A stretch of DNA of 32,000 nt. It comes from Haloferax volcanii DS2. Lineage in GTDB: Archaea; Halobacteriota; Halobacteria; Halobacteriales; Haloferacaceae. Below, in pieces: positions 2,575 to 22,480 of the stretch. The stretch spans positions 1,650,001-1,682,000 of the forward strand of contig NC_013967.1 of the NCBI RefSeq assembly GCF_000025685.1, in the 5' to 3' direction. A program made the translations under genes and the position numbers. A model generated the notes under the pieces. The model worked only from the letters and a program-made list of their open reading frames with translations, made no database searches and was not told where the DNA came from. The number at the start of each line of letters is the position of its first letter. Position 1 is the first letter of the stretch.

Positions 2575-4345
2575 GGACGTCGAACGCTGGAAGTCGGAGG
2601 TCTACGGTAACGAGATACGAGAGCACCTGCTGGAGTTCGCTGAGCAGGGCTGGGACTCCATCCCGGAAGACGAGCGAGACGCCTGGTTCGAGCGCTTCAA
2701 ATGGTGGGGACTGTACCACCAGCGCAACGGCCAAGAGTCGTACTTCATGATGCGCATCGGAACGCCGAACGGCGTGCTGACGCCCGGCCAGACCGAAGTC
2801 GTCGCGGAGGTCGCCGACGAGTACGCCCGCGGCCCCGCCGAGAACCCCATCTTCGGCAACGGCTACGTCGACTGGACGACCCGCCAGTCGATTCAGCTCC
2901 ACTGGATTAAGCTGGAGGACATCCCGGAAATCTTCGATAAGCTCGAATCGGTCGGGCTGTCGACCCAGCAGGCCTGCGGTGACTCGTGGCGGAACATCGT
3001 CGGCTGTCCCGTCGCCGGCAAGGACAAACACGAGCACGTCGACGCGCTCCCCGTCGCGATGGAGCTCAACGAGACGTTCAAGGGCAACGACGACCACTCG
3101 AACCTCCCGCGCAAGTGGAAGGTCTCCGTCACCGGCTGCCGCGAGGGCTGCGGTCAGGGCGACATCAACGACCTCGCGCTCGAACCCGCGACCAAGGAAA
3201 TCGACGGCGAGGAGACGAAGGGCTTCAACATCCGCATCGGCGGCGGCCTCTCGCGGAACGAACCGCGGCTCGCCCGCGACATCGACGTGTTCGTGACGCC
3301 CGAGCAGGCCCCCGAGGTGTCGGGAGCCATCTCCGCGCTGTTCCGCGACAACGGCGACCGCGACAACCGCTACAACGCCCGCATCAAGTTCCTGATGGAC
3401 GAGTGGGGCGCGGAGAAGTTCCGCAACGTCCTCCAGGAGGAGTACGTCGACTTCGAGCTGGAGACCGCCGGCGAGGACCTGCGCTCGGAGTACTCCTACA
3501 ACTCCGGCTACGCCGACGGCGGCCACTCCGACCACGTCGGCATCCACGAGCAGGCCGACGGCAACTACTACGTCGGACTCGACGTGCTCGTCGGCCGCAT
3601 GGGCGTCGACGACACGAAGGAACTCGCCCGCGTCGCCGACGAGTACGGCTCCGGCGAGATTCGCATCACGCAGCGCCAGAACGTCATCATCACCGACGTA
3701 CCCGAAGAAAAGCTCGACGCGCTGCAAAACGAGGACCTTCTCGACCACTACTCGCCCGACCCGCACCCGTTCATGCGCGGCTCCATCGCCTGTACGGGCA
3801 CCGAGTTCTGTTCGCTCTCCATCGTGGAGACGAAGAACCGGCAGGTCCGCTACGCCCGCTGGCTCAAGGAGAACGTCGACCTCCCCGCGGGCGTCGAGGA
3901 CTTCCACATCCACCTCTCGGGCTGTACGGCCTCCTGCGCCCAGCCGCAGATTGCGGACATCAGCCTCCGCGGCATGAAGACCCGCAAGGACGGCGAACCG
4001 GTCGAGGCGCTCGACATCGGCCTCGGCGGCGGCCTCGGCGAGAACCCGAACTTCGCCGAGTGGGTCACCCAGCGCGTCCCCGTCGACGAAGTGCCGGGTG
4101 CCATCAAGAACCTGCTCGCGAACTTCGAGGAGCGCCGCGAGGGCGACGAGACGTTCCGCGAGTTCGTCGCCCGGACGGACGAAGAGGAGCTGGCCGAACT
4201 AGTCGAACCCGAAGAGACCAGCTACGAGGACCCGATGATGCACAACACGAAGCGCACGTGGTACCCCTACGCCGACGACGACGGCCTCGACGCGAGTCCC
4301 GCGCCGACCCGCGCCGACGGCACGCCCATCGCGAGCGACGACTGA
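2567..4345 (+). CDS. ferredoxin-dependent nitrite/sulfite reductase (siroheme + [4Fe-4S], NirA/Sir family)
   Basis: 592-aa ORF. It shows the duplicated NiR/SiR half-domain pattern and the cluster-binding cysteines CTGTEFCSLS and SGCTASCAQPQ (C-x5-C ... C-x3-C). The N-terminal WWGLYHQR block is typical of the family. Substrate (nitrite or sulfite) cannot be decided from the sequence. Confidence 0.9.
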   Translation: MPTDVERWKSEVYGNEIREHLLEFAEQGWDSIPEDERDAWFERFKWWGLYHQRNGQESYFMMRIGTPNGVLTPGQTEVVAEVADEYARGPAENPIFGNGYVDWTTRQSIQLHWIKLEDIPEIFDKLESVGLSTQQACGDSWRNIVGCPVAGKDKHEHVDALPVAMELNETFKGNDDHSNLPRKWKVSVTGCREGCGQGDINDLALEPATKEIDGEETKGFNIRIGGGLSRNEPRLARDIDVFVTPEQAPEVSGAISALFRDNGDRDNRYNARIKFLMDEWGAEKFRNVLQEEYVDFELETAGEDLRSEYSYNSGYADGGHSDHVGIHEQADGNYYVGLDVLVGRMGVDDTKELARVADEYGSGEIRITQRQNVIITDVPEEKLDALQNEDLLDHYSPDPHPFMRGSIACTGTEFCSLSIVETKNRQVRYARWLKENVDLPAGVEDFHIHLSGCTASCAQPQIADISLRGMKTRKDGEPVEALDIGLGGGLGENPNFAEWVTQRVPVDEVPGAIKNLLANFEERREGDETFREFVARTDEEELAELVEPEETSYEDPMMHNTKRTWYPYADDDGLDASPAPTRADGTPIASDD

Positions 4346-13842: not shown

Positions 13843-14175
13843 TCAGGCTTTCGGGATGCGGCGGACTTGGAACTCGCGGTAGCCGCCGTAGGCGGCTTCG
13901 AGCGCGCCGAGCCACCAGTTCCAGCGCGTCGCGGGGTCGCCATCGGGCGCGTCGCGCATGTTCCGCACGATTTCGTCGCCCGTGAGCGGCGCGCCGCGGT
14001 CGGCCTCGGCCTGCCCCGAGTCCGCGAGGTCGCGGGCCTGCCGCGCGACGACCCGGCGCTCGGCGTCGGTACCGCCGAACTCGGCGAGGGCGTCGCGGAA
14101 CGACTCCTCGTCGAACGCGGGATGGGTGTCGCCGTGCCTGTCGGTGGGGGTCACGACTCTCTCTACGGGGGCCAT
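13843..14175 (-). CDS. acidic conserved hypothetical protein
   Basis: 110-aa ORF with an ATG start, acidic composition and good GC3 bias. Confidence 0.6.
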   Translation of the reverse strand: MAPVERVVTPTDRHGDTHPAFDEESFRDALAEFGGTDAERRVVARQARDLADSGQAEADRGAPLTGDEIVRNMRDAPDGDPATRWNWWLGALEAAYGGYREFQVRRIPKA

Positions 14176-14259: not shown

Positions 14260-15405
14260 CTACGCCCACCACTCGCTCCGGCGCTCGCCGTACGTCGCGT
14301 TCCGGAACGGTTCGGGCTTGTCGTCGTCGGCCTCCGCGCCGAGGTAGTGGGCGGTCCAGTAGCCGACGTGCCAGCCGACGGCCTCGGTGTCGAGGTCGAC
14401 GAGGACGACCCGGTAGCTGCCGTAGGTCTCTAACGCGCCGTCGCCGTCCGGGTCGTAGCCGCCGGCGATGGCGCAGGAGGCCGCGCCCGCGGCGCACGGC
14501 GAACTGTCCGCAAAGGAGATGCGCACCTCGGCGTCCGCGGGGTCGTCGACGTAGGTGTAGGTGAGGTTGTCGGGCATCCCCGGCGCGCCGCCTTCGAAGT
14601 AGTCGAGCGCGTGGCGAACCTGCTCGCGGGCCGCGTCGGGGTCCGAGGCGTTCGTGTCGTCGATGTGGACCGTGAAGTTCGGGTCGTCCCACGGGAACGC
14701 CTTCTCGGTCGCGTTCGTCCGCGGGAGCGTGTAGAGGATGCCCGTGGCGTTCATCAGGTCCGCGGGTTCGTCGCCGTGGGCGAGTCCGAGCGTGTGACCG
14801 AGTTCGTGTGCGACGATATCGACCGTCGAGTCGTCGCCGTATCCGGTGCGGACGTAGACGGTCTCGGGGCGGTCTATCTGCCACCCGTCGGTGAGGTAGG
14901 GCGCGCAGCCGGCCGCGTCGTCCAGCCCGCTGCACACCGGGATGTCGTCGGTAAAGCGGACCACGAGGTCCGGGTCGCGGGCGTCGGCGTCGACCTCGTA
15001 GTCGATTTCGTACTCCAGGTAGCGCGAGTCGTTCCCCTCCCAGAACGCCGTCGCCTCGCTCACGAGGGCGGCGTAGTCGCGGCCGTCGTCGGGCGCTGCG
15101 ACGGAGACGACGACCGGCTCGGACCCCCACGGCCCGTAGCCGGGCGCGGGCGTGAACGTCGTTGTGGGTTCGGGCGTCGGTGACTCGGTAGGCGCGGCAG
15201 TCGGGGTCACGGTCGCGGTCGTCGACGGAGGCGAAGTCGTCGGGGTCGCGGTCGCCGCGGGCGACTCGGTTGCCGAGTCGGTGGTCGGCGGCGAAGCCGC
15301 AGACGTGGCAGTCGTCGCTGTCGTCCCGTCGGTTCCCGGCGACACCGGCGCGGCACAGCCGGCGAGGACGACGAGCACCGCCACGAGGAGAGTCGAGCCG
15401 CGCAT
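14260..15405 (-). CDS. secreted metzincin-type zinc metalloprotease lipoprotein with Thr/Pro-rich linker
   Basis: From the ATG at 15405 the N-terminus is MRGSTLLVAVLVVLAGC, a signal peptide plus lipobox. A linker of about 65 aa rich in Thr/Ser/Pro/Ala follows. The extended zinc motif is HELGHTLGLAHG (HExxHxxGxxH). Alternative upstream TTG starts (15432, 15471) would add an RRR-containing n-region. Confidence 0.8.
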   Translation of the reverse strand: MRGSTLLVAVLVVLAGCAAPVSPGTDGTTATTATSAASPPTTDSATESPAATATPTTSPPSTTATVTPTAAPTESPTPEPTTTFTPAPGYGPWGSEPVVVSVAAPDDGRDYAALVSEATAFWEGNDSRYLEYEIDYEVDADARDPDLVVRFTDDIPVCSGLDDAAGCAPYLTDGWQIDRPETVYVRTGYGDDSTVDIVAHELGHTLGLAHGDEPADLMNATGILYTLPRTNATEKAFPWDDPNFTVHIDDTNASDPDAAREQVRHALDYFEGGAPGMPDNLTYTYVDDPADAEVRISFADSSPCAAGAASCAIAGGYDPDGDGALETYGSYRVVLVDLDTEAVGWHVGYWTAHYLGAEADDDKPEPFRNATYGERRSEWWA

Positions 15406-15492
15406 ACCGAGACTGCGGCGGCGAACGGTCAAGAGCGTTTCCCGACGGCGCGAAAACGGCTCGACCGACAAAGCGGTCGCTCGGCGGTTCGA

Positions 15493-15930: not shown

Positions 15931-16074
15931 CCCTAGTCAGGTCGGTCGGATAAGCGGTTCGATTAACGGGGTCCTACCGGGGTTTAGCCGCACGTTATGT
16001 TGCAACGAAACTACATAACAACGGGATAACATCCGAGGGAAGCGTTGAAGTCACCACAGAACTTGAATGGTAAT

Positions 16075-16677
16075 ATGTCCGAGGCGCAGACCGTACACCT
16101 CACCTACGATGATGGGGCGCGGGCGGTCGAACTAGCGCGGGAATCGGTCGAATCGTACGTTCTTCACGGGCAGAGAGAACAACCGGGCAGCATGCGCGAC
16201 GCGTTTTACGCTCGAACCGGGGCGTTCGTCCGCATCAAGTCGACACGGGGGCGCGGTCGACTGCGGGGCTGTGCGGGCGCGTATCGGGGGAAAGACCAAC
16301 TCGGTCACGCCATCGTCGACGCCGCCATCAAGGCCGCGTCGGGCGACTCCTGCCAGACCGAAATCGAAGCACCCGAACTGCCGAACCTGAACATCTCTGT
16401 CTGTATCGTCAACAACTACACGCTGACTAACGACCCAGTCGCAGACATCGAACTCGGCACTCACGGCATCGCCATCGACGCCGGCGGCACCCACGGCTGG
16501 ATGTATCCGACGCTGCCCGTCGAACTCGGCTGGTCGAAAGAGGAGTTCCTCACGAACGCCTGCCGCAAAGCCGGTCTGTCGCCGCTGGCGTGGCAGGACG
16601 ACGACACCATGATTACCCTGTTCGAAGGACAGGTCTTCCGCGAGCGCGACGACGGCGGGAGCGTCGAAGCGCTGTAA
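16075..16677 (+). CDS. AMMECR1-domain protein
   Basis: I use the ATG at 16075 (MSEAQTVHLT...). RGRLRGCAGAY matches the family LRGC[IA]G signature. Length is 200 aa. Confidence 0.85.
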   Translation: MSEAQTVHLTYDDGARAVELARESVESYVLHGQREQPGSMRDAFYARTGAFVRIKSTRGRGRLRGCAGAYRGKDQLGHAIVDAAIKAASGDSCQTEIEAPELPNLNISVCIVNNYTLTNDPVADIELGTHGIAIDAGGTHGWMYPTLPVELGWSKEEFLTNACRKAGLSPLAWQDDDTMITLFEGQVFRERDDGGSVEAL

Positions 16678-18010: not shown

Positions 18011-18331
18011 TCAGCAGACGGCGATTGTCGCGTCGTAGACCGTCCCGTTCTTGCGGACGTAACTGGGTCCCGGCGACCACGGCCGGTCGTCGAGCGAAAC
18101 CATCGAGTCCGAGGCCAGCGCGTCGTCGAGGGCGGCCTGTTCGGCGGGCGTGAGCGACTCGTAAGCGACTATCTCCGCGTCGGCGGGAACGTCGTCGGCC
18201 GGGTCCACGCCGAGTTGCGGCGGGCAACTGTTCGACCACGGAACGAGCGACCCGGTGACGAAGAGGAAGGCCGCGACGAACAGGACGAGCAAAGAGGCGA
18301 CGAGCGCGAAGCGACCGAGCCGGCTGGACAT
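18011..18331 (-). CDS. small membrane-anchored exported protein ending in Cys (partner S1 of the HExxH lipoprotein)
   Basis: 106 aa. It has an N-terminal hydrophobic anchor (FALVASLLVLFVAAFLFV). The ~75-aa domain carries C-x3-L-x-VDPAD-x-VP-x-DA and YVR-x5-Y-x3-IAVC-stop. It is a paralog of 19841-20281. Confidence 0.7.
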   Translation of the reverse strand: MSSRLGRFALVASLLVLFVAAFLFVTGSLVPWSNSCPPQLGVDPADDVPADAEIVAYESLTPAEQAALDDALASDSMVSLDDRPWSPGPSYVRKNGTVYDATIAVC

Positions 18332-18368
18332 ACGGAGCGGCTGTCGGTCCGGTCACAAATGCTTTCTT

Positions 18369-19802
18369 CTAGCTTCGCTCGTGAACCTCGTCCACCTGCG
18401 CCACGGTCGGCGCGTTGACGACGGTGACGGTGTTCCCCTCCCTCGTCACCCGATAGGCGTCCGCGAAGGGGCCGTCGTCGACGCGGTAGGTGTCCTCTCC
18501 CGCCTCCGACGCGTTGAGGCTGCGCTCCAGCGTGTCGGTCACGTACGCCCGCTCGAACTGCTCGGCGTCCGCCTCGGTGTCCCAGACCGTCCGCCAGACG
18601 TAGCCGCGCTCGTGGGGGTTCGCCTCGTACGTCTCGTCGGACGCCGGGCGGTAGGGAACCACCGCGTCGCCGGCCCAGCCCTCGGAGGGTTCGGCGGTGT
18701 AGTTGTACGGCGAGTACGCGCCGGGGTCCTGCTGGAGGCTCGCCCGGTCGACGGCGCGGTGCTTCCAGAACGTCGCGAAGACGGACGCCTCGCCGACCGT
18801 GTCGGCGGTGGGGTCGGTGTCATAGCGCGTCCACGCCGCCGACGAGCGGTCTTCGACCGTCACCTCGACCGGTCGCTCGTCGGGGTAACGGGTCGGGTGG
18901 AGCACCTGCTCGGTCGAGGTGGGGCGGTCGGCGTAGGCCGCGTCAACGGCCGCCCAGCCGCCGCGGTCGCGCAGGTCCGAGACGAACGTCGGCCCCTCGC
19001 TGTACGGCGTGTAGATGGTGATGAACACCGGGTAGTCGACCGACCCGCCGCCCGCCCCACTGTTCGACGGCTGAGGGACGCAGTCCCAGTCGGCCTCACA
19101 GCGGGCTTCGTACAGGCCGTCGACGTAGCGGGCGTCGCCTTCGACCAGCCCGCTGTGGGCGAGTTGGGCGTCCTGCGTCGACGGCGAGCGGTCCAGACCG
19201 AACTGCTGGTCCTGTGCGGCGTGGACCAGTTCGTGGGCGAGCGTCCGACGGTCGATGGTCGGTTGGCTGTCGTCGCTCACGACGACGATGCGGCCCTCGG
19301 AGGGGGAGTAGTAGCCGAGCACCACGCCGCCGTACAGTTCGTCGAACACCTCGTCGATGGTCCGGTCCTCACCGACCAGCAACAGCGCCTCCCACACCTG
19401 GTCGTTCCAGTCGCTGTGGACCGGGTCGGTCGACGCGTCGGACTCGTTTCGGTACTCGGCGCGCGAGACGACCTCGACCGGCACGGACTCCTCGAACTCC
19501 AGTTCGCGGACGACCTCGACGCGAGCCATCGTGCGGGCGACGAACGCCTCCATCTCGGAGTCGTTCAGCCCGTCGGACTGGTCGACCGCGATGGACTCGT
19601 CGTACCAGTAGCCGGCCTCCCAGCCGAGTCGGTCGGTCGGCGGGTCGTCGGGCCACGACCGGTCGGCGTCCGGGTCCGCGCCCCCGACCGCTGCGTCCGA
19701 GTTGTCGTTCGCGGCGCTCGGGTCTGCGACGGGGGCGGCACAGCCGGCGACGACGAGCAGAAATGCGGAGAAAACGGCGGCGAGGCGGCGGTTCATAGCC
19801 AA
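18369..19802 (-). CDS. HExxH-motif surface lipoprotein L1 (uncharacterised putative gluzincin-like; possibly the family NCBI names Hvo_1808 surface protein)
   Basis: 477 aa. The signal plus lipobox is MAMNRRLAAVFSAFLLVVAGC. The motif HELVHAAQDQ is followed 27 residues later by EGDA. It is a paralog of 20378-21808. The family name is from memory and unverified. Confidence 0.85.
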   Translation of the reverse strand: MAMNRRLAAVFSAFLLVVAGCAAPVADPSAANDNSDAAVGGADPDADRSWPDDPPTDRLGWEAGYWYDESIAVDQSDGLNDSEMEAFVARTMARVEVVRELEFEESVPVEVVSRAEYRNESDASTDPVHSDWNDQVWEALLLVGEDRTIDEVFDELYGGVVLGYYSPSEGRIVVVSDDSQPTIDRRTLAHELVHAAQDQQFGLDRSPSTQDAQLAHSGLVEGDARYVDGLYEARCEADWDCVPQPSNSGAGGGSVDYPVFITIYTPYSEGPTFVSDLRDRGGWAAVDAAYADRPTSTEQVLHPTRYPDERPVEVTVEDRSSAAWTRYDTDPTADTVGEASVFATFWKHRAVDRASLQQDPGAYSPYNYTAEPSEGWAGDAVVPYRPASDETYEANPHERGYVWRTVWDTEADAEQFERAYVTDTLERSLNASEAGEDTYRVDDGPFADAYRVTREGNTVTVVNAPTVAQVDEVHERS

Positions 19803-19840
19803 TTCACGGGCGGGAGATGAAAAAGCGTCCCGGCGCGGGG

Positions 19841-20281
19841 TCAGCAGATTGCGACGACGGAGCTGTACGTCTCGTTTTCGTACCTGACGTACGGGCGCTC
19901 CACCCAGAACTCGTAGGCGTCGGTCCGCTCGGAGAACGACGCGGCGTCGGCGCTCTCTGCGGAGTTTGACCCGCCAACCGCCGCGTCGAACTCCGCGCGC
20001 CGCTCTGTCGAGAGGTTCGCGTAGTCGAAGACGGTCGCGTCGCTCGGAACCTCATCCGCGGGGTCGACCGAAAGCGTGGCGTTGCAGTCGGCGTACCACT
20101 CGTCGGTTTCCGTGGGTGTCGCCGGGTCGGTCGGTGTGGGTTCCGCCGTCGTCGAAGTCGGCGTTTCCGTCGTCACCGACGGCGACTCACCCGGCGCGTC
20201 GGCAGTCGGGACGCCGACACAGCCGGAGAGGACGGCGAGCGCGGCGAGCGCCGCCAGCGGGAGGGCTCGAAAGCGGGCCAT
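19841..20281 (-). CDS. small exported lipoprotein ending in Cys (partner S2)
   Basis: I use the ATG at 20281 (MARFRALPLAALAALAVLSGC), which gives a signal plus lipobox. A Thr/Pro-rich linker follows, then the same domain as S1 (C-x3-L-x-VDPAD-x-VP-x-DA ... YVR-x5-Y-x3-VAIC-stop). An upstream GTG at 20320 is possible but less likely. Confidence 0.7.
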   Translation of the reverse strand: MARFRALPLAALAALAVLSGCVGVPTADAPGESPSVTTETPTSTTAEPTPTDPATPTETDEWYADCNATLSVDPADEVPSDATVFDYANLSTERRAEFDAAVGGSNSAESADAASFSERTDAYEFWVERPYVRYENETYSSVVAIC

Positions 20282-20377
20282 ATCCCGGTTGGCGTCGCCC
20301 CGCGGCAAGTGCTTTGTCACCGAGCGGGCGGGAACGCGAAACGGAACGGGAAAATCAGCGTGAAACGCGGGGCCGAC

Positions 20378-21808
20378 TCAGCCGGCGAGTCCCGGCCGAA
20401 TCTCGTCCACGTCGGCGGGTGCCGGGCCGTTGACGACGACGACGCGGTCGCCGGTGCGGACGACCCGGAAGGCGTCGTTGAACGAGCCGTCCGCGATGAC
20501 GTAGACGCCGTCGTCCCGCTGGGTGGCGTCGTGGGCGCTGAGGATGTTCAGGTACGCGTCGTGGAACTCCCGCGCGTCGTCGTCGGTGTCCCACTCAGTC
20601 ACCCAGACGTAGCCGTAGTCGGTCTCCGCGCCGGCCGCGTTGCGGTAGGGGAACAGGCGGTCGTTCGCCCAGCCGTTCGACGGCTCGGCGTCGTAGTTGT
20701 ACGTGTCGTACTGCGAGTTCGTGTCGAGGATGGACTGGACGCGGACGGTTTCCGCGCCGGACGTGCGGGCCTGATACCAGAACATCGCGAACATCGACGC
20801 CTCTCCGACCGTGTCCGAGCCCTCGACGCCCTGGTCGGGGAAGGTGGTCCAGCCGTTCGTCCCCTCGTCGACGAAGGAGATGAGACGGGGCGATTCGTCG
20901 GTGACGTGGATGGTCTGTTCGGTGGACGCCGGCGGGTCGCGAAGGGCGTCGTTGACGGCCTCCCAGCCGCCCCGCTCGTAGAGGTCGTGGACGTACACCG
21001 GGCCGTCGGAGTACGGCTGGAAGATGGTAATCAGGACGCCGAGGTTCGGGCTGCCGCCGCTGTTTTCCGTGTCGGGCGTGGCGACGCAGTCCCACGTCCC
21101 GGCCGCGCACCGCTCGCTGTACTGTCGTTCGACGTAGCTGGCGTCGCCCTCGACGATGCCGTCGGTGGCGAGGTCGCCGTCCTGCGTCTCGCTTCGGAAT
21201 CGGGCGTCGGTCAGGTCGAACCGCTGGTCCTGTGCGGCGTGGACCAGTTCGTGGACGAGCGTGGCGTTGTCGATGGTCGGCTCGCCCGGGGAGTCGGTGA
21301 CGATTTTGATTTCGCCGTCGGACGGCGAGTAGAAGCCGAGGACCGAACTCCCGGTCGTCTCGGAGATGGCGCTCGCGCTCGCGGTCGACTCACCGGCGAT
21401 GAAAAGCGCCTCCCACACCTGGTCGTTCCAGCGGTTGTACTCGGAGTCCGAAGCGGCAGAGCCGCCGGCGTTGGCGCTCCGATAGTCGTCTCGGGAGACG
21501 ACGCTGACGGGGACGCGCTCGTCGAACTCCAACTGCCGGAGCTGTTCGACGCGGGCCATCCCGCGGGCGACGTACGCCTCCATCTCGGAGTCGTTCAGCC
21601 CGTCGGACTGGTCGACCGCGATGGACTCGTCGTACCAGTAGCCGACCTCCCAGCCGAGCACGTCTTGGTCGGGGTCGTCGAAGCCGTCTCTGTCCGGGTC
21701 GGGGGTCGCGGGCGACGCGTCGCCGCCGGGCGCAGCCGTGGGGGCGGCACAGCCGGCGAGAACCAAGAGTACGGCGGCGAAAACGGCGCGGAGACCGGTG
21801 GTTCGCAT
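20378..21808 (-). CDS. HExxH-motif surface lipoprotein L2 (paralog of L1)
   Basis: 476 aa. The signal plus lipobox is MRTTGLRAVFAAVLLVLAGC. The motif HELVHAAQDQ is followed 30 residues later by EGDA. Many blocks are shared with L1. Confidence 0.85.
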   Translation of the reverse strand: MRTTGLRAVFAAVLLVLAGCAAPTAAPGGDASPATPDPDRDGFDDPDQDVLGWEVGYWYDESIAVDQSDGLNDSEMEAYVARGMARVEQLRQLEFDERVPVSVVSRDDYRSANAGGSAASDSEYNRWNDQVWEALFIAGESTASASAISETTGSSVLGFYSPSDGEIKIVTDSPGEPTIDNATLVHELVHAAQDQRFDLTDARFRSETQDGDLATDGIVEGDASYVERQYSERCAAGTWDCVATPDTENSGGSPNLGVLITIFQPYSDGPVYVHDLYERGGWEAVNDALRDPPASTEQTIHVTDESPRLISFVDEGTNGWTTFPDQGVEGSDTVGEASMFAMFWYQARTSGAETVRVQSILDTNSQYDTYNYDAEPSNGWANDRLFPYRNAAGAETDYGYVWVTEWDTDDDAREFHDAYLNILSAHDATQRDDGVYVIADGSFNDAFRVVRTGDRVVVVNGPAPADVDEIRPGLAG

Positions 21809-21907: not shown

Positions 21908-22480
21908 ATGGAACTCGACCCGACCCGAACCGCGGTGGTCGTCGTGGATATGCAGAACGGCTTTTGTCACCCCGACGGGAGCCTGTTCGCGCCGGGGAGC
22001 GAATCCGCAATCGAGCCGGTTACGGGACTCGTCGCCGCCGCCCGCGACGCCGGCGCGCGCGTCGTCTACACCCGCGACGTGCACCCGCCGGAGCAGTTCG
22101 AGGGCAACCACTACTACGACGAGTTCGAGCGCTGGGGCGAACACGTCGTCGAGGGGACGTGGGACGCCGCCCTCCACGACGGCCTCGACGTGCGCGACGA
22201 GGACCTCGTCGTCGAGAAGCACACCTACGACGCGTTCTACCGGACGCAGTTGGCGGGCTGGCTCGACAGCCACGGCGTGGACGACCTGCTCATCTGCGGC
22301 ACGCTGGCGAACGTCTGCGTCCTCCACACCGCCGGGAGCGCCGGCCTTCGGGACTACCGACCGATTCTCGTCACCGACGCGCTCGGCTACATCGAGGAAG
22401 AACACAAGGCGTACGCCGTCGACCACGCCGACTGGCTGTTCGGCGAGACGGCGACGCTCGCGGACGTGACGTTCGAGTAG
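21908..22480 (+). CDS. isochorismatase-family cysteine hydrolase, probable nicotinamidase
   Basis: I use the ATG at 21908 (MELDPTRTAVVVVDMQNGF). The catalytic-Cys block is LICGTLANVCVLHTA. Length is 190 aa. The 5' 530 codons of the 723-aa track ORF are antisense junk. The nicotinamidase role is inferred from the family and the nearby NAPRTase. Confidence 0.8.
   Translation: MELDPTRTAVVVVDMQNGFCHPDGSLFAPGSESAIEPVTGLVAAARDAGARVVYTRDVHPPEQFEGNHYYDEFERWGEHVVEGTWDAALHDGLDVRDEDLVVEKHTYDAFYRTQLAGWLDSHGVDDLLICGTLANVCVLHTAGSAGLRDYRPILVTDALGYIEEEHKAYAVDHADWLFGETATLADVTFE

Follow-up and report, generated by a model that had tools for sequence, protein, structure and literature searches.

Four consecutive genes of Haloferax volcanii DS2, HVO_1808 to HVO_1805, alternate between a large and a small product, and the locus raises the question how this order came about and whether the neighbouring proteins act together. 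The genes lie in the window analysed here, i.e. the whole stretch of 32,000 nucleotides of contig NC_013967.1 (positions 1,650,001 to 1,682,000), and all coordinates below are window positions. We labelled the two large genes L2 and L1 and the two small ones S2 and S1. An earlier note, made from the letters of the window, had read them as a tandemly duplicated cassette of a large lipoprotein gene and a small exported partner. An open reading frame (ORF) scan gave the following genes:

20378..21808, minus strand: L2 (HVO_1808), 476 amino acids (aa), exact match to ADE04680.1; lipobox LAGC after a Sec signal, HELVH at 21253-21239, EGDA at 21151-21140
19841..20281, minus strand: S2 (HVO_1807), 146 aa, exact match to ADE04138.1, named 'DUF7979 domain-containing'; lipobox LSGC, Thr/Pro-rich linker, DUF7979 domain of ~80 aa from Cys66 (20086-20084) to the C-terminal Cys146 (19846-19844)
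18369..19796, minus strand: L1 (HVO_1806), 475 aa from the ATG, exact match to ADE03698.1; lipobox VAGC, HELVH at 19235-19221, EGDA at 19142-19131, invariant Cys pair at 19100-19098 and 19082-19080
18011..18331, minus strand: S1 (HVO_1805), 106 aa, exact match to ADE03760.1; N-terminal transmembrane/signal-anchor helix at residues 4-28, DUF7979 domain from Cys36 (18226-18224) to the C-terminal Cys106 (18016-18014)

The head-to-tail arrangement with gaps of about 37-96 nt described earlier was borne out: 96 nt separate L2 from S2, 44 nt S2 from the ATG of L1, and 37 nt L1 from S1. Only the start of L1 had to be shifted. It is almost certainly the ATG at 19796 (MNRRLAAV...) rather than the TTG at 19802 that opens the 477-aa ORF, because the deposited H. 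volcanii protein and the orthologues begin there. L1 and L2 share 50% identity over their full length (E 3e-141), S1 and S2 35% across 86 aa (E 3e-11), and the orthologues of S1 and of S2 carry the same family, PF25934, in line with the proposal of two paralogue pairs. The lipoboxes VAGC and LAGC, HELVH and EGDA were likewise confirmed by coordinates; EGDA follows the second His after 27 residues in L1 and after 30 in L2. Together with LSGC of S2 the lipoboxes fit the pattern [L/V][A/S][G/A]C closing a signal peptide. S1 is without a lipobox and has the long hydrophobic helix of residues 4-28 in its place.

The best explanation of the whole, which we rate as about even, is a pair of ancient paralogous genes for putative metallopeptidases, L2 and L1, to which an optional S module was added later, copied and repeatedly lost. 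All four genes were already annotated, as being of unknown function, in a model organism; what is new is limited to the association of L with an S module and to the history of the locus.

We surveyed 80 genome loci (81 with the window), covering 5 kb on either side of L. S genes were sought in them with hidden Markov models of the Haloferax S proteins and of a diverse set of 75 DUF7979 domains. As a rule the L genes stand in tandem arrays, L-L(-L), with two L copies in 47 of the 81 loci and three in another four. At least seven other genera have L2- and L1-type genes that abut with no S gene between them. By score, the upstream L is the orthologue of L2 and the downstream L that of L1 in Halogranum, H. 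mucosum, Halobonum, Salinirarus, Haloplanus and others. A neighbour-joining (NJ) tree of the L proteins places 17 loci in an L2 clade, 11 in an L1 clade and 16 in a clade with a QExxH motif, and neither the L1 nor the L2 clade includes the opposite paralogue of the window. Judged by this tree and by gene order, the split between L1 and L2 is far older than the distribution of S.

The distribution of S is narrow. Of the 80 genome loci, 78 have no detected DUF7979 ORF within 5 kb of L; the other two are Haloferax Q22 and locus L080. S1 is located directly 3' of L1 in Q22, which is the single locus of the 80 with S adjoining L. In L080, from one metagenome-assembled genome, the gene is of a different, unrelated-looking kind. 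It lies at 2805-3971 on the minus strand, about 750 nt upstream of L, divergently and on the opposite strand, and encodes a lipobox protein of 388 aa in which a long Thr/Pro/Ser linker is combined with two to three DUF7979-like repeats (E 2.8e-6). A scan of metagenome contigs with a narrow S alignment recovered one locus, which was already in the set.

Among close relatives several gene orders occur. The order L2-L1-S1 is present in Q22, in Atlit-6N (locus L081) and in one further genus. A metagenomic lineage with an L1 of 52-55% identity has the order L-L-S(lipobox)-HVO_1804 homologue, and the S protein P0135 is encoded in the same downstream context. L2-S2-L1 is found in L087 and in the basal Haloferax-like L090, the latter lacking S1. 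A degraded S1 persists between L1 and the HVO_1804 homologue of H. mucosum (L002, 6369-6549); it reads ...VDDASEDVTVVPYDSLSP...DVLVC-stop, has no start codon and carries internal deletions. In H. chudinovii (L016, 6419-6500) the L2 stop is followed by the L2-L1 spacer, the last S1 codons (GTCGCCGTCTGCTGA) and the S1-HVO_1804 spacer; evidently one deletion took L1 and almost all of S1. The arrangements found overall are L2-S2-L1-S1, L2-L1-S1, L2-S2-L1, L2-L1 with an S1 pseudogene, and L2 alone. The earlier note had named a lack of synteny between S and L in other genomes as a point that would speak against its model. Such a lack applies to most genomes; in Haloferax and at least two related lineages, however, a lipobox DUF7979 gene does lie immediately 3' of L. 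The constant presence of S beside L wherever L occurs, by which a protease-inhibitor pair of the potempin or Inh/AprI kind would be recognised, was not observed, S being lost or pseudogenised even within Haloferax.

The spacers show where the small genes were added. The 50 nt past the S2 stop align with the entire L2-L1 spacer of Haloferax genomes that lack S2 (CCGCGCCGRGACGCTTTTTC.TCTCCCGCCC), which argues that S2 and its 96-nt upstream spacer are a discrete indel at the L2 stop codon. Upstream of the genes of the window we noted the following short elements, of which the first two would combine a transcription factor B recognition element (BRE) with a TATA box:

18353..18366, minus strand: putative BRE/TATA-like element of S1 (GAAAGCATTTGTGA), -35 to -22 from the ATG, directly past the L1 stop
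20303..20316, minus strand: putative BRE/TATA-like element of S2 (CAAAGCACTTGCCG), -35 to -22 from the ATG
19816..19826, minus strand: GCTTTTTCATC, about -30 to -20 from the L1 ATG

The interval from -35 to -22 is the canonical distance of a haloarchaeal TATA box on a leaderless mRNA. The AT-rich elements of S1 and S2 are in register, and a related element precedes all S orthologues; in the mucosum, L087 and L090 lineages it is AAGATACTTAG at either position, so that the upstream elements group by lineage and not by position. A promoter function of the S1 element in the sense direction, and of the S2 element, is inferred. The 11-mer GCTTTTTCATC could be a TATA-like box of L1, and its run of five T could also terminate transcription after S2; it recurs about 20 nt upstream of the HVO_1804 ATG (about 17965-17955). 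A scan for sigma-70 promoters and terminators was discarded as uninformative for an archaeon.

Published differential RNA sequencing (dRNA-seq) data place an antisense transcription start site (TSS) at 18394 on the plus strand, whose TATA motif, scored at -30, is the AT-rich S1 element, and another at 19891 on the plus strand; among the dRNA-seq entries listed, the TSSs of HVO_1806 and HVO_1807 are all antisense (PMC4983044 supplement). Four TSS-flank strings of 71 nt from these data match the window exactly, each at an offset of 1,650,000, which fixes its position on the DS2 chromosome. The published antisense starts and RNAs face the 3' end of L1, the 5' half of S1 and the 3' end of S2, and include an RNA at 18202-18373 on the plus strand.

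The relationships among the S proteins do not follow those among the L proteins. In an NJ tree the lipobox S proteins encoded beside L fall into a single clade, no matter which of the L genes they follow. Proteins encoded at the S1 position in other genera (P0135, P0136, P0143) group with the S2-type lipobox proteins and not with Haloferax S1, so S does not mirror the L1/L2 split. The duplication of an L+S unit with a period of about 2.0 kb, as claimed in the earlier note, is therefore not supported: the L1 and L2 clades span many genera without S, and the histories of L and S are incongruent. Nor is retention of the pairing through a duplication supported, given that S2 is a discrete indel and that L2 and L1 adjoin without S in other genera.

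We propose the following sequence of events. The L2-L1 tandem would be older than the radiation of the Haloferacaceae. In the ancestor of Haloferax and a few relatives an S module, consisting of its own TATA-like promoter and the ORF, would have been added right after an L stop codon. From there a copy would have reached the equivalent site behind the second L gene. Ectopic recombination or gene conversion via the paralogous flanks is the probable means, the homologous 3' ends of the L genes serving as one flank and the similar promoter regions as the other; the module would have been lost repeatedly since. Two further results concern S1. Haloferax S1 lies outside the lipobox S clade, which may reflect a long branch or a separate origin. 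In addition, the S1 allele has a history different from that of the neighbouring L1: between the window and Atlit-6N the synonymous divergence (dS) is 0.85 for S1 (L081 6001-6318) and 0.22 for the adjacent L1. Since S1 exceeds L1 this far, the locus is a mosaic, and recombination has probably exchanged the S1 allele.

Ectopic recombination or conversion would offer an easy way to copy the module. Between L1 and L2, gene conversion is seen to operate in the H. volcanii genome itself. The tract comprises two segments:

19537..19628: L1 copy, encoding LGWEAGYWYDESIAVDQSDGLNDSEMEAF, L2-type sequence copied into L1
21567..21658: L2 copy, the probable donor

The segments are identical at 90 of 92 nt, including a perfect run of 71 nt. 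Within 19545-19628 all 28 third codon positions agree, whereas 14 of 33 are mismatched in the neighbouring 100 nt. The L1 orthologues of Q22 and H. mucosum carry YNESIAVNQSDGLNATEREA in the tract segment, which is a distinct L1-type sequence. By these comparisons L1 and L2 have recently undergone gene conversion in this tract. H. volcanii is a polyploid organism in which the process is known to be efficient. The blocks shared by L1 and L2 that had been listed earlier are indeed present; the longest of them (LGWE.GYWYDESIAVDQSDGLNDSEMEA) does not reflect conservation alone, as it lies in this tract of about 90 nt.

What kind of protein is L? L1 and L2 are full-length members of the NCBIfam family NF038145, 'Hvo_1808 family surface protein', of which HVO_1808 (L2) is the namesake. 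L1 scored 525.7 bits and L2 500.6 bits against a curated cut-off of 200 bits, with positions 1-432 of the 432 profile positions covered, and the family name suggested in the earlier note was thus the right one. Membership of L in PF26686 (DUF8575) was shown only indirectly, through precomputed matches in all 120 listed L homologues and in the orthologous genes of L081 and L090. Most Halobacteria have Hvo_1808-family proteins, frequently encoded by two or three genes in tandem; in the main haloarchaeal model organism they are surface glycoproteins. HVO_1808 has been used as a test substrate for Sec export and lipobox processing; it is cell-associated, and its C19S mutant is still processed and cell-associated (PMC2945643). 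In a 2026 study its lipidation was not validated by mass spectrometry, the criterion being unmet in ali mutants (PMC13631571). HVO_1806 is an AglB-dependent N-glycoprotein (PMC8241124). A full-text literature search found no functional work on the Hvo_1808/DUF8575 or the DUF7979 family.

Conservation was assessed in 133 full-length homologues from 80 haloarchaeal genomes. E191, H194, Q197, E221, G222, Y231, C235, C241, Y267, G337 and Y368 are invariant in all of them, and residue 190 is His in 117 and Gln in the remaining 16. The QExxH sequences (motif TLSQELFHALQDQ) make up a coherent 'QELFH' subfamily, which shares an additional conserved His (E.HNA.DG) immediately ahead of EGD. Their loci include L001 (3353-4894), L058 (4878-6407), L070, L057, L060-L063, L067-L069, L072 and L075, and by their tree position and motifs these genes are a third ancient paralogue group of the Hvo_1808 family. 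In Halogranum the QExxH gene is located between L2 and L1, i.e. where S2 sits in H. volcanii.

The AlphaFold2 model of L1 (predicted local distance difference test score, pLDDT, 89; predicted template modelling score, pTM, 0.85) places strands at 163-166 and 171-175, HELVH in a helix spanning 185-201, and E221 in a helix spanning 210-237. In the model this is the order of structural elements expected for a gluzincin. Foldseek returned collagenase ColH as the top match in the PDB (E 1e-3, probability 0.80, template modelling (TM) score 0.19), followed by the putative hydrolase 3cmn. In profile searches the best Pfam match was DUF6782 (18.9 bits against a cut-off of 27, E 1e-3), the best NCBIfam peptidase match flagellinolysin (19.6 bits against a cut-off of 205, E 5e-4) and the best PDB profile IrrE (E 0.12). 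All sub-threshold matches (DUF6782, M78/IrrE, M76, flagellinolysin and XopG) fall on the same segment comprising a strand and HExxH. The earlier view of a gluzincin-like HExxH...E layout that cannot be placed in a characterised peptidase family agrees well with these results.

Two groups of known peptidases resemble L. ColH (MEROPS M9; PDB 9cme) shares with L an HExxH on a helix and a Glu about 27-30 residues further on the next helix; in clostridial collagenases this spacing is roughly 28 residues. In contrast, sequence identity to ColH is 11%, the TM score over the whole chain is 0.14-0.19, the profiles yield no significant match, and domain architecture, size and N-terminal anchoring are all unlike. 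The minimal zincins IrrE/ImmA (M78), DUF6782, Atp23 (M76) and the DUF4157/extracellular contractile injection system (eCIS) core share with L the local strand-helix signature 'G-x-Y-x-P ... short strand ... TLxHE(L/I)xHA'. Their matches stay below the curated cut-offs (E 1e-3 to 0.3) and span 35-60 residues, and the catalytic domain of L is much larger and is followed by an extra C-terminal alpha/beta domain.

The best reading of L is a putative gluzincin-type active site. HVO_1808 and HVO_1806 would be Sec-exported, cell-associated, glycosylated surface proteins in which an edge beta-strand of the N-terminal domain leads into the HExxH helix (H190, E191, H194). Glu221, 27-30 residues on in the next long helix, would be the third ligand, a disulfide formed by the invariant pair C235/C241 would follow, and an alpha/beta C-terminal domain would complete the protein. 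The L proteins would most likely work at the cell surface, cleaving peptides or proteins. If L proteins are metallopeptidases, they would represent a new and widespread family of archaeal cell-surface proteases.

The S proteins were assigned through their relatives. PF25934 (DUF7979) is carried by proteins that cluster with S1 (at 98% identity) and with S2 (at 89%), and UniRef names the exact S proteins of the window 'DUF7979 domain-containing protein'; S1 and S2 themselves gave no matches in NCBIfam or in a Pfam set without PF25934. When 1.84 billion representatives were searched with an S-domain profile, 117 cluster representatives (50% identity) matched at E <= 1e-3. The majority have 90-160 residues, an N-terminal transmembrane helix or lipobox, and a single domain of about 75 residues; S1 and S2 are like other members of PF25934 in combining a membrane tether with one such domain. 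A few matches carry two or three genuine DUF7979 repeats, e.g. P0139. The apparent repeat proteins P0134 (1781 aa, 16 stretches) and P0230 were rejected as false positives, being tetratricopeptide repeat proteins, and no informative domain fusion of DUF7979 was found among the matches. The Cys at the domain start and the C-terminal Cys are both present in 43 of 75 single-domain members and both absent in 32, and no member has one alone. Owing to this both-or-neither covariation the two residues almost certainly form a disulfide. The AlphaFold2 model of S1 (pLDDT 87.6) consists of the transmembrane helix 4-28 and a beta-beta-alpha-beta-beta domain. With dN/dS values of 0.35-0.52 against orthologues, S1 is under purifying selection.

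Would S act on L? S2 would be tethered by its lipobox and Thr/Pro linker and S1 by an uncleaved signal anchor, the domain of each being closed by the disulfide between its first and its C-terminal Cys. The S proteins might then be optional binding partners at the membrane surface with a modulating effect on the neighbouring L, the most plausible being inhibition or restraint. A link is supported by the presence of the S module exactly 3' of an L paralogue at two sites, by the single clade of the L-adjacent lipobox S proteins, by the purifying selection on S1, by an RNA-seq block that extends from HVO_1806 into HVO_1805, and by the location of L and S in the same compartment. The best precedent for how such a pair could work is provided by the potempins of T. 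forsythia, small lipoprotein inhibitors encoded beside each secreted KLIKK-peptidase gene (PMC9890683). As in the L-S locus, paralogous secreted peptidase genes are each adjoined by an ORF for a lipoprotein of about 100-130 residues (PMC9890683). Potempin genes lie upstream of the peptidase gene, whereas S genes lie downstream with a putative promoter of their own; no similarity in fold or sequence was detected between potempins and S, and S is missing from most L genomes. Altogether a functional partnership of L and S is plausible, unproven, and somewhat doubtful. More specifically, by analogy the L-linked DUF7979 subclade might consist of dedicated membrane-tethered regulators of Hvo_1808-family surface metallopeptidases, for example tight-binding inhibitors or positioning factors, carried on self-contained promoter-plus-ORF modules; we consider this unlikely. 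Recombination would then insert or delete the modules exactly at the stop codons of peptidase genes and tune surface proteolysis strain by strain. With a family-specific small partner of this kind, archaea would gain their first example of a protease regulator that is membrane-tethered and encoded in cis, and the potempin/KLIKK arrangement would have an archaeal counterpart. As the genes are HVO_1805-1808 of H. volcanii DS2, the proposal is directly testable with existing genetics.

Several observations weigh against a partnership, and many of them suit the alternative that S is unconnected with L. A DUF7979 gene could have landed in a permissive intergenic site and been copied locally, its adjacency to L being neutral and due to descent within a narrow clade, a reading that we hold as rather less likely than not. 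S is absent from most L-bearing genomes and was lost or degraded several times. Just one subclade of PF25934 is encoded beside Hvo_1808-family genes; other members are unlinked to L (P0137, P0146), and a preprint reports DUF7979 genes in the neighbourhoods of HvFdR homologues. Each S gene has its own putative promoter, and RNA sequencing (RNA-seq) assigns HVO_1808 and HVO_1807 to separate blocks, the one for S2 extending over 19838-20171 (PMC6490895 and its S2 table). With separate blocks and a TATA-like element for each gene, a single operon is not indicated. The mosaic S1 allele suggests independent exchange. The position of Haloferax S1 apart from the lipobox S clade also speaks against a partnership. 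The S1 model has no significant fold match in the PDB (best Foldseek E 0.5), and no metalloprotease inhibitor was among its matches. Against mere adjacency stand the two separate insertion positions, both exactly 3' of an L paralogue, and the shared extracytoplasmic, membrane-tethered compartment. Moreover, the arrangement is kept under purifying selection across lineages in which L1 is just 52-70% identical, and transcription reads through from L1 into S1, as an RNA-seq block at 18193-19567 runs from within HVO_1806 to 138 nt into HVO_1805 (PMC6490895).

Returning to L as a surface peptidase, a rival reading takes it for a glycoprotein with a binding or structural role at the surface, built on a degenerate zincin scaffold, or for an enzyme with other chemistry, and S perhaps for a membrane anchor or co-receptor that keeps processed, non-lipidated L at the cell surface. 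Much of what counts against peptidase activity also speaks for this rival. No match of L to a characterised peptidase family in Pfam, NCBIfam or the PDB profiles is above threshold, the fold-search scores are weak (TM 0.19-0.35), and the literature search found no report of proteolytic activity for any member of the family. The QExxH subfamily means that a strictly canonical zinc site is not universal, and in Halobacterium, Haladaptatus and Halorussus the QExxH gene is the sole L copy within the 5 kb covered on either side. HVO_1808 remains with the cell when its lipobox Cys is replaced, and the 2026 study did not validate its lipidation, so that another factor may hold it there; membrane tethering is predicted for the S proteins. 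However, Glu191, H194 and E221 are invariant also in the QExxH group, which is a conservation typical of active sites, and the extra His that this group holds just before EGD is itself conserved. S cannot be a general anchor because most species have L without S. We regard this rival reading of L as unlikely.

The model of the earlier note, in which an ancestral L+S unit was duplicated once, the pairing being ancestral and selected and S later widely lost, appears improbable. It gains from the presence of S after both L2 and L1, always immediately 3' of the L stop, from the identity of S1 to S2 not being above that of L1 to L2, and from losses of S that do occur, as in H. chudinovii and H. mucosum. 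Where histories can be compared, S1 and L1 also evolve at similar rates, the nonsynonymous divergence (dN) between the window and Q22 being 0.085 for S1 and 0.089 for L1; the two splits, of S and of L, could therefore be of the same age. Yet the model needs both S genes to have been lost, without remnants, in every sampled genus beyond the neighbourhood of Haloferax, where L2-L1 pairs have short or overlapping spacers, and neither the grouping of S1-position proteins nor that of the upstream elements follows position. The idea that S is a pro-domain acting in trans, a detached copy of part of L, was rejected, as hhalign of L against S gave a probability of 0.5%; the unrelated profiles also take one conceivable mode of partnership away. 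An ancient tandem paralogue pair, an optional small-gene module and a recent gene conversion make the history of the locus instructive.

The flanking genes HVO_1809, HVO_1804, HVO_1803 and HVO_1802 form the same syntenic block as in other Haloferax:

TSS at 21908, plus strand: HVO_1809, isochorismatase family
flanking gene next to S1: HVO_1804, nicotinate/quinolinate phosphoribosyltransferase-like
16045-16677, plus strand: HVO_1803, AMMECR1, ORF listed from the TTG at 16045
14260-15471, minus strand: HVO_1802, 403 aa, M10-like lipobox lipoprotein with HELGHTLGLAH; Pfam Peptidase_M10 27.5 bits

The published TSS of HVO_1803 at 16075 falls on an ATG (MSEAQTVHL...), so its mRNA is leaderless and the protein ten residues shorter than the listed ORF. 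HVO_1802, metzincin/M10-like and with a long Thr/Pro-rich linker, is the third lipobox putative metalloprotease within 8 kb; N-glycosylation has been reported for it, and the gene is syntenic in Atlit-6N. A small ORF at 13843-14175 on the minus strand (110 aa, containing ...RWNWWLGALEAAYGGY...) matches in position the PF26484 (WNWW) gene of the syntenic Atlit-6N locus.

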